Assembly (NCBI GenBank): GCA_041674885.1
Contig: JBAYUZ010000001.1
Coordinates: 37,804 to 101,803 of the forward strand
Origin: Dehalococcoidia bacterium
GTDB lineage: Bacteria > Chloroflexota > Dehalococcoidia > UBA2979
DNA length: 64,000 bases
Direction: 5' to 3'
In this document: in pieces, positions 37,830 through 41,570 of the stretch
Layout of the letters: each line of letters begins with the position of its first letter
Numbering within the stretch: position 1 is the first letter of the stretch
The notes under the pieces: model-generated
What the model saw: the letters and a program-made list of their open reading frames with translations, nothing else
Databases searched by the model: none
What the model was told of the DNA's origin: nothing
Position numbers and translations under genes: made by a program

Positions 37830-38891
37830 ATGGATCGCGCCGCCCGCCTGCACGCCCTCCACGACGCACTCCGCGAGCGCATCCTCGTGCTCGACGGCGC
37901 GTGGGGCAGCCTGATCCAGCGCTATGGGCTGGAGGACGCCGACTTCCGCGGCACCCGCTTCGCGAACTGGCCCGCCGACCTGAAGGGCAACCCCGACCTG
38001 CTCAACCTCACGCGCCCCGACATCGTGCGCGAGATCCACGACCGCTACATCGAGGCCGGGTGCGACATCACCTCGACCAACACGTTCACCTCCAACCGCA
38101 TCGCCCAGGCCGACTACCGCCTGGAGGACGTCGCGCAGGAGATGAACGAGGCCGGCGCGCGCATCGCCCGCGAGGCCGCCGATGCCGCGCAGGCGCGCGA
38201 CGGTCGCCTCCGCTGGGTCGCGGGCTCGATCGGCCCCACCAACCGCACCGCCTCGATCTCCCCGGACGTGAACGACCCCGGCGCGCGCAACGTGACCTTC
38301 GAGGACCTCCGCGCCGCCTACGCCGAGGCCGTGCGCGGCCTGATGGACGGCGGCGCCGACATCCTGCTCATCGAGACGATCACCGACACCCTGAACGCGA
38401 AGGCAGCCGTCTTCGCCGCCGAAGACGTGTTCGAGGAGCGTGGCGAGGAGGCGGCGATCATCCTGAGCGGCACGATCGTCGACCGTTCCGGCCGCACCCT
38501 CTCCGGGCAGACGCTGGAGGCGTTCTGGACCTCGCTCTCCCACGCCCGCCCGCTTGCGATCGGCCTCAACTGCGCGCTCGGCCCGCAGGAGCTGCGCGCG
38601 CACATCGCGGAGCTCGCGCGTATCGCCGACGTGCCCGTCGCCGCCTACCCCAACGCCGGCCTGCCGAACGAGTTCGGCGGCTACGACGAGACGCCGGAGC
38701 AGATGGCCGCCGCGCTCGGCGCGTGGGCCGGCGAGGGCATCGTGAACATCGTTGGCTCCTGCTGCGGCAGCACCCCGGAACACACGCGCGCGATCGTCGA
38801 GGCCGTGCGCGGCCTCCGGCCGCACGTCATCCCGGATCACCGCGCGACGATGCAGCTCGCGGGCCTCGAATCCGTCGAGATCGGCGCCTAG
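37830..38891 (+). CDS. metH: Methionine synthase MetH, homocysteine S-methyltransferase (Hcy-binding) domain, encoded as a separate ORF
   Basis: Hcy-binding domain with the zinc-ligand cysteines ([18 protein letters not shown]). Ends at a TAG at 38889-38891; the next ORF starts in frame at the adjacent ATG. Confidence 0.85.
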
Positions 38892-41570
38892 ATGACCACC
38901 GGCACCACCACTGACGGCAACGCCGAGGCGCGCGCGAACTTCGTCAACATCGGCGAGCGCACCAACATCACCGGCTCCGCGCGCTTCCGCCGCCTCATCT
39001 CCTCCGGCGACTACGCGACGGCCGTCGAGGTCGCCCGCCAGCAGGTCGAGGCGGGTGCGCAGGTCATCGACGTGAACATGGACGACGCCATGCTCGACGG
39101 CGAGCAGGCGATGACGCGCTACCTCAACCTCATCGCCGCCGAGCCCGACATCGCGCGCGTCCCCGTGATGATCGACTCCTCCAAGTGGAGCGTGATCGAG
39201 GCGGGCCTGCGCTGCGTGCAGGGCAAGGCGATCGTGAACTCGATCAGCCTGAAGGACGGCGAGGACGAGTTCCTGCGTCGCGCCCGCCTCGTGCGCCGCT
39301 ACGGCGCGGCCGCCGTCGTGATGGCGTTCGACGAGGCGGGCCAGGCCGACACCGCCGAGCGCAAGTTCGCGATCTGCGAGCGCTCCTACCGGCTGCTCGT
39401 CGACCGCGTCGGCTTCCCGCCCGAGGACATCATCTTCGACCCGAACATCTTCGCGATCGCTACGGGCATCGAGGAGCACGCGAACTACGCGCTGGAGTTC
39501 ATCGCCGCCACCGAGCGCATCAAGCAGGCGCTCCCCCACGCGAAGGTCTCCGGCGGCGTCTCGAACGTCTCGTTCGCCTTCCGCGGCAACGACGCCGTCC
39601 GCGAGGCGATGCACGCCGTCTTCCTCTACTACGCGATCCGCGCGGGCATGGACATGGCGATCGTGAACGCGGGCGCGCTGCCCGTGTATGACGAGATCCC
39701 GGAGCAGCTCCGCGTGCGCGTGGAGGACGTGATCCTCAACCGCCGTCCCGACGCGACTGAGCGCCTGCTGGAGGTCGCCGAGTCCTACCGCCGCGACGCG
39801 AAGGCCGCCGAGGCGCCCAGCCTCGAATGGCGCCAGGCGCCCGCAGCCGAACGCATCACGCACGCGCTCGTCCACGGCATCGACGAGTTCATCGTCGACG
39901 ACGTGGAGGAGGTGCGGCAGCAGGTCGCCGCCCCGCTCGAGGTGATCGAGGGGCCGCTGATGGCGGGCATGAACGTCGTGGGCGACCTCTTCGGCGCGGG
40001 CAAGATGTTCCTGCCCCAGGTGGTGAAGAGCGCGCGCGTCATGAAGAAGGCGGTCGCCCACCTCGAGCCCTACATCGAGGCGGGCAAGGCCGCGGGCGGC
40101 CGAGGCAACAACGGCCGCATCGTGCTCGCCACTGTGAAGGGCGACGTCCACGACATCGGCAAGAACATCGTTGGCATCGTCCTGCAGTGCAACAACTACG
40201 AGGTCATCGACCTCGGTGTGATGGTGCCCGCGCAGCGCATCCTCGACACGGCGCTGGAGGTCGGCGCGGACGTGATCGGCCTCTCCGGCCTCATCACGCC
40301 GAGCCTGGAGGAGATGGCGTACGTCGCCGGCGAGATGCAGCGGCAGGGCTTCACGCTCCCGCTGCTCATCGGCGGCGCGACCACCAGCCGCGCGCACACC
40401 GCCGTGAAGATCGCGCCGAACTACCCCGGCCCGCTCGTCTACGTGCCGGACGCCTCGCGCGCGGTCGGCATCGTCTCCACGCTGCTCTCCGAGGATCGCC
40501 GCGACGCCTTCGCCGCCGACACCCGCGCCGAGTACGACCGCATCCGCGCCGACCACCTCGGTCGCGAGGAGGAGCGTGCTCGCGTGACGATCGAGGAGGC
40601 GCGCCAGCACCCCGCGCCCGTGCGCTGGGAGGGCTACACGCCCCCCGTCCCCGCCCACCTCGGCATCACCGTCTACGAGGACGTGCCGCTGACGGAACTC
40701 GTCGACCGCATCGACTGGACGCCGTTCTTCCAGGCGTGGGAGCTCGCGGGTTCCTACCCACAGTTGCTCGACGACCCGGCCGTCGGCGATGCCGCGCGCA
40801 AGCTGCTCGATGATGCGCGCGCCATGCTCGACCGCATCGTCGCGGAGCGCTGGCTCACCGCCCGCGCCGTCGTGGGCCTCTGGCCCGCGCAGCGCGACGG
40901 CGACGATATCGTGCTGTTCCAGGACGACACGCGCGCCGCGACGCTCGCCACGATCCACACGCTGCGCCAGCAGACGAGTCGCGAGCGCGGGCGCCCGCAG
41001 AATTTCGCACTCGCCGACTTCATCGCCGAACCCGAGCGCGGCCTGCGCGACTATCTCGGCGGCTTCGCCGTCACCGCCGGCATCGGCCTCGACGCGCGCG
41101 TCGCGGCGTTCGAGGCGGATCACGACGACTACTCCGCGATCATGCTGAAGGCGCTCGCCGATCGCCTCGCCGAGGCGCTCGCGGAGCGCATCCACGAGCG
41201 TGTCCGCCGTGAGCTCTGGGGCTACGCCGCGGACGAGACGCTGGACAACGATGCGCTGATCGCGGAGCGCTACCGCGGCATCCGCCCCGCGCCCGGCTAC
41301 CCCGCCTGCCCCGATCACACCGAGAAGCGCACGCTCTTCGACCTGCTCGGCGCCGAGGCGCGCGCGGGCGTCACGCTCACAGAGTCGTTCGCGATGCTGC
41401 CGACGGCCGCCGTCTCGGGCTTCTACTTCAGCCACCCCGACGCGCGCTACTTCGGCGTTGGCCGCATCGAGCGCGATCAGGTCGAGGACTACGCGCGCCG
41501 CAAGGGCATGACCGTCGCCGAAGTCGAGCGCTGGCTCGCCCCGAACCTCGCCTACACCCGCAGCCGCTAG
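38892..41570 (+). CDS. metH: Methionine synthase MetH, pterin-binding + B12-binding + AdoMet-activation domains
   Basis: Collinear with E. coli MetH residues ~355-1227. B12-binding [10 protein letters not shown] motif and the activation domain are present. Confidence 0.9.

Follow-up and report, generated by a model that had tools for sequence, protein, structure and literature searches.

A predicted two-gene cobalamin-dependent methionine synthase in a Dehalococcoidia metagenome contig, broken in the linker between the homocysteine and folate barrels

Cobalamin-dependent methionine synthase (MetH) encoded in two parts has been described before. In Burkholderia phytofirmans PsJN, BPHYT_RS02310 carries the S-methyltransferase domain and BPHYT_RS02305 the pterin, B12 and reactivation domains; in 9 of the 35 GapMind test organisms a split MetH was judged genuine, in B. 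phytofirmans because relatives share the split (PMC7311316). Sphingomonas koreensis likewise has a two-part metH, and mutation of either part has a mild effect on fitness (Price et al., PMC7857596). In Caulobacter crescentus the consecutive genes CC_2137 and CC_2138 each bear a methionine synthase annotation, and metF lies two genes away (PMC3751524; PMC6538847). Here we describe such a locus in a 64,000-nucleotide stretch of DNA from a Dehalococcoidia bacterium (contig JBAYUZ010000001.1 of assembly GCA_041674885.1, forward-strand positions 37,804 to 101,803), the whole of which is called the window below. Two abutting genes, metH-N and metH-C, correspond to two open reading frames (ORF-N and ORF-C) and very probably encode a genuine, evolutionarily stable two-subunit cobalamin-dependent methionine synthase, as predicted from sequence. 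The locus adds an uncultured Chloroflexota-labelled lineage to those in which a two-gene MetH is already documented.

At positions 38874-38918 the junction reads GTC GAG ATC GGC GCC TAG ATG ACC ACC GGC ACC ACC ACT GAC GGC, in the frame shared by the two genes (Table 1). The first plausible start of the upstream frame is the ATG at 37830, with GAGGGG ahead of it. Between the TAG and the conserved FVNIGERTN motif of the downstream frame there is no in-frame start codon other than the abutting ATG, so 38892 is the only candidate start of ORF-C. The exact ORF-N protein was found on one public contig (ENA metagenome assembly ERZ27247358, k141_2272689), in which the gene caller gives two abutting genes. 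An antisense open reading frame, 37806..41726, spans the locus and is the usual shadow frame of a gene of 70% G+C.

Table 1. Features of the metH locus and its immediate neighbors (window coordinates)
Feature	Position	Strand	Description
metH-N (ORF-N)	37830..38891	+	353 aa; stand-alone homocysteine-binding (S-methyltransferase) subunit, predicted; ends in first half of Linker I
metH-C (ORF-C)	38892..41570	+	892 aa; pterin(folate)-binding barrel, B12 cap, B12-binding and AdoMet activation domains
TAG/ATG junction	38889..38894	+	metH-N stop abuts metH-C start; same frame; zero intergenic bases
Shine-Dalgarno-like GAGGGG	37819..37824	+	upstream of ORF-N start
Variable N-terminal tail of metH-C	38892..38936	+	corresponds to the 13-aa insertion of the sequence-only reading
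metF (methylenetetrahydrofolate reductase)	41581..42594	-	PF02219, E 1.6e-73; convergent neighbor, context only
RF-1-domain protein (ArfB-like peptidyl-tRNA hydrolase)	37228..37743	+	171 aa; PF00472; directly upstream of metH-N

A sequence-only reading of the window had described a methionine synthase in two abutting in-frame open reading frames, with a homocysteine-binding (Hcy) domain of 353 residues stopping at TAG 38889-38891 and the pterin, B12 and activation part starting at the adjacent ATG, and both the sequence and the Pfam content agree with this description. ORF-N carries PF02574 (homocysteine S-methyltransferase) alone (E 3e-92), and ORF-C carries PF00809, PF02607, PF02310 and PF02965 on one chain. 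PF00809, the pterin (methyltetrahydrofolate)-binding barrel, occupies ORF-C residues 21-259 (E 5.6e-64), and PF02965, the reactivation domain dependent on S-adenosylmethionine (AdoMet), scores E 1e-126 and has its RxxxGY motif as RPAPGY at residue 798. The zinc-ligand cysteine triad of ORF-N is present as Cys247, Cys310 and Cys311, within NCA and SCCG motifs, while the B12 domains (PF02607 and PF02310) keep the DxHxxG...SxL...GG pattern as GDVHDIGKN and LSGLIT...LLIGGATTS. Over 95% of its length, ORF-N matches residues 16-352 of E. coli MetH at 57% identity; ORF-C is 76-86% identical to the C-part of the relatives described below. Judged by these matches, the two frames jointly supply the complete five-domain set of MetH (EC 2.1.1.13).

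This partition, a Hcy protein and a pterin, B12 cap, B12 and reactivation protein from adjacent genes, is that of B. phytofirmans, in which the two genes have consecutive locus tags. Both B. phytofirmans and S. koreensis belong to the Proteobacteria, whereas the genes here come from uncultured metagenome-assembled genomes (MAGs) labelled Chloroflexota. The window junction is a zero-gap, same-frame TAG-ATG followed by a variable tail of 13-21 residues; the Burkholderia and Sphingomonas loci are compared with it by their published description only. The Caulobacter locus, likened by annotation alone, shares the adjacent pair of methionine synthase genes and a nearby metF; neither CCNA_02221 nor CCNA_02222 is listed in the supplements to the ribosome-profiling paper on Caulobacter.

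In full-length Thermus MetH, Linker I zips the Hcy barrel and the folate-binding (Fol) barrel into a rigid tandem body, and Linkers II and IV are mobile (PMC10567725). Alignment places the break in Linker I. With HMMER, the junction-spanning sequence matches human methionine synthase (4CCZ, 9SSP) such that the Hcy barrel runs straight into the Fol barrel (E about 5e-69), with a single 13-residue gap opposite the ORF-C tail, and the same gap appears in a MAFFT alignment with E. coli MetH and four fused MetH sequences from bacteria. At the linker the fused enzymes read LSGLEPLNIGE-DSLFVNVGERTN, whereas the split clade to which the window belongs reads LAGLExVEIG(A/G/S) up to the break and M directly after it, followed by 13-21 variable residues. 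The C-terminus of ORF-N retains the Linker I motif LxGLExxxIG. The tail of metH-C is missing from human methionine synthase, E. coli MetH and the fused bacterial MetH; its length (about 13-21 residues) and its sequence vary inside the split clade, and the presence of an extra tail is common to the whole clade. The sequence-only reading had placed the junction in an inter-domain linker relative to E. coli MetH and had seen an insertion of about 13 residues there; both observations stand, and the alignments identify the insertion as a poorly conserved N-terminal tail of ORF-C. The window pair thus has all five domains and the catalytic motifs of single-chain MetH (E. coli, Thermus, human methionine synthase), and differs from it in a chain broken in Linker I with about 13 extra residues after the break.

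A free PF02574 protein might instead be an independent homocysteine S-methyltransferase of MmuM/BHMT type, using S-methylmethionine, AdoMet or betaine, that happens to stand beside a truncated MetH-like protein serving some other purpose. Free-standing PF02574 enzymes of these kinds do exist (PMC3228920), and the free Hcy-binding subunit MtgE of roseobacters works with separate corrinoid and pterin proteins (PMC12478193). Set against these precedents are the 57% identity of ORF-N to the N-terminal module of E. coli MetH, with the Linker I motif kept, and the MetH remainder lacking exactly the Hcy domain that always lies directly 3′ of ORF-N. Moreover, the window holds no second copy of the Hcy domain, and the neighbor is metF, not the transporter that typically accompanies a stand-alone enzyme of this type. 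We consider such an independent enzyme very unlikely. Assignment of ORF-N to the stand-alone MmuM/BHMT type was rejected, the MetH remainder following directly, the Linker I motif being kept and the neighbor being metF.

The three-part MtgCDE system of Phaeobacter inhibens and Ruegeria pomeroyi has separate pterin and corrinoid proteins, lacks PF02965 and uses RamA-like reactivation (PMC5764234; PMC12478193). Its corrinoid subunit is reported not to be derived from classical MetH, and in roseobacters methionine synthesis and glycine-betaine demethylation share subunits (PMC12478193). The likeness to the window is that a free Hcy-binding subunit takes the methyl group from a corrinoid on another polypeptide, which for the window is predicted from its genes. 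The window differs in keeping the Fol, cap, cobalamin and activation domains as one classical MetH chain with PF02965. Assignment to the MtgCDE type was rejected as well, since ORF-C has PF00809, PF02607, PF02310 and PF02965 on a single chain.

Relatives were gathered in three ways: by a word-indexed protein search, by context look-ups of four matches, and by a scan of one genome per species. The best 120 matches of the word-indexed search, ranging from 97% to 60% identity, are almost all 350-367 residues long with PF02574 only; this hit list seems biased to query-like lengths and was not used as a frequency estimate. Unlike that list, dominated by proteins of about 355 residues, the genome scan found many full-length fused MetH at 58-65% identity. 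It returned 80 loci. In a neighbor-joining tree of the N-domain, the window and the relatives listed below form one clade whose members are each split. Among named genomes, uncultured "Chloroflexi" and "Dehalococcoidia" MAGs come closest.

Seven further lineages of this clade, at 97% to 65% identity and from independent assemblies, are all split. The 97% relative, from another sample, has abutting genes at 3501-4562 and 4563-7238 and is known by coordinates only. The junction is GGC TAG ATG in the 89% relative, found in four separate sequencing runs, and AGC TAA GTG in the 85% relative, found in three Joint Genome Institute (JGI) samples. The 76% relative, represented by 24 or more contigs, has a 4-nucleotide ATGA overlap that puts the C-part in a different frame. 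From the genome scan came TAG ATG at 75% identity, an ATGA overlap at 67% and TAG GTG at 65%. Within the clade the junction therefore drifts, with TAG, TAA or TGA as the stop, ATG or GTG as the start, and frames the same or different, while the split is kept. In comparisons with three relatives, the N half has a ratio of nonsynonymous to synonymous substitution rates (dN/dS, Nei-Gojobori) of 0.17-0.30 and the C half one of 0.16-0.28, which points to equal purifying selection on both. The split is older than about 35% protein divergence.

The sequence-only reading had left two explanations standing, a point nonsense in a once-continuous metH and a natural split, and a comparison of split and fused forms in related genomes had been set beforehand as the test between them. 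If the TAG were a recent nonsense mutation, or a sequencing or assembly error, in a continuous metH, the locus would be a pseudogene or an artefact. The two frames are indeed in register and one stop codon apart, and single-chain forms are frequent among homologues at 55-65% identity: of 78 loci that could be resolved, 54 are fused and 24 split, the contig of the window itself and repeated contigs from the same relatives being counted in. Yet the split recurs in independent assemblies at 97, 89, 85, 76, 75, 67 and 65% identity with differing stops, starts and frames, every relative has a start codon exactly at the junction, the extra variable tail is common to the whole clade, and dN/dS of 0.16-0.30 on both halves gives no sign of relaxed selection 3′ of the stop. 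A recent lesion or an error is accordingly exceedingly improbable, and a pseudogene or nonsense-disrupted metH is excluded for practical purposes by the clade-wide stop/start junction and the C-half dN/dS of 0.16-0.28. The natural split is supported because relatives from independent samples share the abutting stop/start junction. Sharing among related genomes is also what GapMind uses to separate a genuine split from a frameshift or error, and related genomes share the split here.

A different alternative takes the TAG as real and supposes its programmed read-through or recoding, giving a full-length single-chain MetH, alone or beside the halves. An in-frame stop is shared by the window and the 89%, 85%, 75% and 65% relatives, and a gene with an RF-1 domain lies just upstream, probably by coincidence. 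Read-through fits poorly, however, with the ATGA overlaps that put the 76% and 67% relatives out of frame, with the TAA of the 85% relative, and with the presence of both same-frame and different-frame junctions among the split lineages sampled; in addition, TAG is the commonest ordinary stop of the window, and the Rfam scan gave no RNA element at the junction. The out-of-frame members of the clade exclude obligatory read-through, and programmed read-through in general has, in our estimate, very little chance of being correct. As a lesser variant, low-level read-through of the TAG could yield a regulated mix of fused and split enzyme.

Split metH also occurs outside the clade. Other split branches of the N-domain tree include cultured Rhodospirillales, namely Azospirillum sp. 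B4, Nitrospirillum iridis DSM 22198, Rhodocista pekingensis, Thalassobaculum spp. (T. litoreum DSM 18839 among them) and strain BAL199. Their break point matches that of the window, the N match ending at query residues 351-353 and the C match resuming at residues 6-17; they differ from the window in lying on branches separate from its clade. Among split forms outside the clade the intergenic distance ranges from 0 to 764 nucleotides, and the frames may be the same or different. In Rhodocista pekingensis (locus L031) the halves are separated by two minus-strand genes, one for a PIN-domain toxin (5081-5494) and one for an antitoxin of the FitA-like ribbon-helix-helix type (5491-5760); lying 764 nucleotides apart, the halves cannot be translationally coupled. 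The same break is thus found on separate branches, and therefore fission in Linker I either occurred in several independent events or spread between lineages. An in-frame stop as a general property of split metH was considered and rejected, different-frame junctions being at least as common across lineages.

An exhaustive search of representatives at 50% identity found forms of about 355 and about 1200 residues, together with many fragmentary metagenome proteins of intermediate length, and so gives no clean ratio of split to fused. In a tblastn search of PLSDB plasmids, which supplied the E. coli MetH sequence used above, metH was mostly single-chain, with no annotated two-gene example. At three loci of the genome scan scored as fused-type (L036, L037 and L077) the metH frame ends early, the C-part match stopping at query residues 542, 487 and 375, respectively; truncation, a frameshift or a different split of metH may account for this.

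The convergent neighbor metF is syntenic in relatives, and its product supplies the 5-methyltetrahydrofolate substrate of methionine synthase. A promoter and terminator scan of 37100-42000 found no promoter-like site and no plus-strand terminator-like site; the single terminator-like match, no better than chance, falls within ORF-C on the minus strand. Since there are zero intergenic bases and no plus-strand promoter-like or terminator-like signal, both frames must be on one transcript. Neither a riboswitch nor a recoding element came up near metH or at the junction in the Rfam scan, which covered the window from end to end at gathering thresholds. Against the 16S 3′ end, the 20 nucleotides upstream of ORF-N give a good Shine-Dalgarno match (-7.3 kcal/mol), and the match for ORF-C is weak (-3.0 kcal/mol).

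Abutting or overlapping stop and start codons are the classic geometry for coupling by termination and reinitiation. Ribosomes ending metH-N would most likely reinitiate at once on metH-C, because the Shine-Dalgarno match of metH-C is weak and its ATG touches the metH-N TAG, and such coupling would produce near-equimolar subunits. We propose that fission of an ancestral single-chain MetH within Linker I parted the Hcy barrel from the Fol barrel, and that the two barrels would now bind each other non-covalently, using the interface that is rigid in single-chain MetH. This mode of assembly seems the most plausible, given the rigid pairing of the two barrels in the single-chain enzyme. The cobalamin domain of metH-C would then shuttle between the Fol barrel for methyl pick-up, the Hcy subunit for delivery to homocysteine, and the activation domain. 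We infer reinitiation coupling, heterodimer formation and activity. A need for both parts in B12-dependent methionine synthesis would have indirect support from the equal purifying selection on the two halves and from the mild phenotypes of the S. koreensis mutants.

Three further observations concern the surroundings. The position of the ArfB-like gene upstream of metH-N is kept in the 97% and 89% relatives and not in the 85% and 76% relatives, and the gene has no apparent link to the junction stop codon. The preference of the window for TAG (16 TAG, 8 TGA and 2 TAA among frames of at least 300 codons with third-position G+C (GC3) > 0.85) comes from a crude count of open frames, not curated gene calls. 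TGA is usually the dominant stop in genomes of about 70% G+C, so the TAG excess is unexpected. The only Rfam match at gathering level in the window is 5_ureB_sRNA (9744-10031, plus strand, 65 bits), antisense to an open reading frame (8485..10182, minus strand) for a 565-residue urease alpha subunit (PF00449 and PF01979); the match most likely stems from conservation of the urease coding sequence and not from a genuine small RNA in this organism.

The case for a natural split is that the split is kept clade-wide with a drifting junction, that both halves are under purifying selection and that the motifs are intact; the sequences show these points directly, along with the gene structure and the domain content. 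Several points weigh on the other side. The window is a single metagenome contig, and its closest (97%) relative shows the abutting junction by gene coordinates alone. The argument from the weak Shine-Dalgarno match to coupling is purely computational. Fragments of E. coli MetH studied by Goulding et al. in 1997 reportedly gave no efficient catalysis between separated halves; those fragments are said to have been cut at a different linker.

Taken as a two-subunit enzyme, the locus may carry in its in-frame stop beside a start a trace of how the fission arose, ancient and with no current lesion. It is mildly notable that the junction can be traced within the clade from an abutting in-frame stop and start to an ATGA overlap. 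By analogy with roseobacter MtgE, the freed Hcy barrel might also take methyl groups from corrinoid proteins beyond its MetH partner, an idea we hold to be improbable; if true, the split would be a gain in modularity and not a neutral fission.

For annotation, an in-frame stop in a familiar multidomain enzyme resembles a pseudogene or an assembly error. Pipelines may call the organism a methionine auxotroph, or label metH-N as a generic "homocysteine S-methyltransferase family protein". For the enzyme family, covalent continuity at Linker I appears to be dispensable, because the break falls in the sole MetH linker reported to hold two domains rigidly, a modest point for the structural biology of MetH and for the engineering of split methyltransferases.

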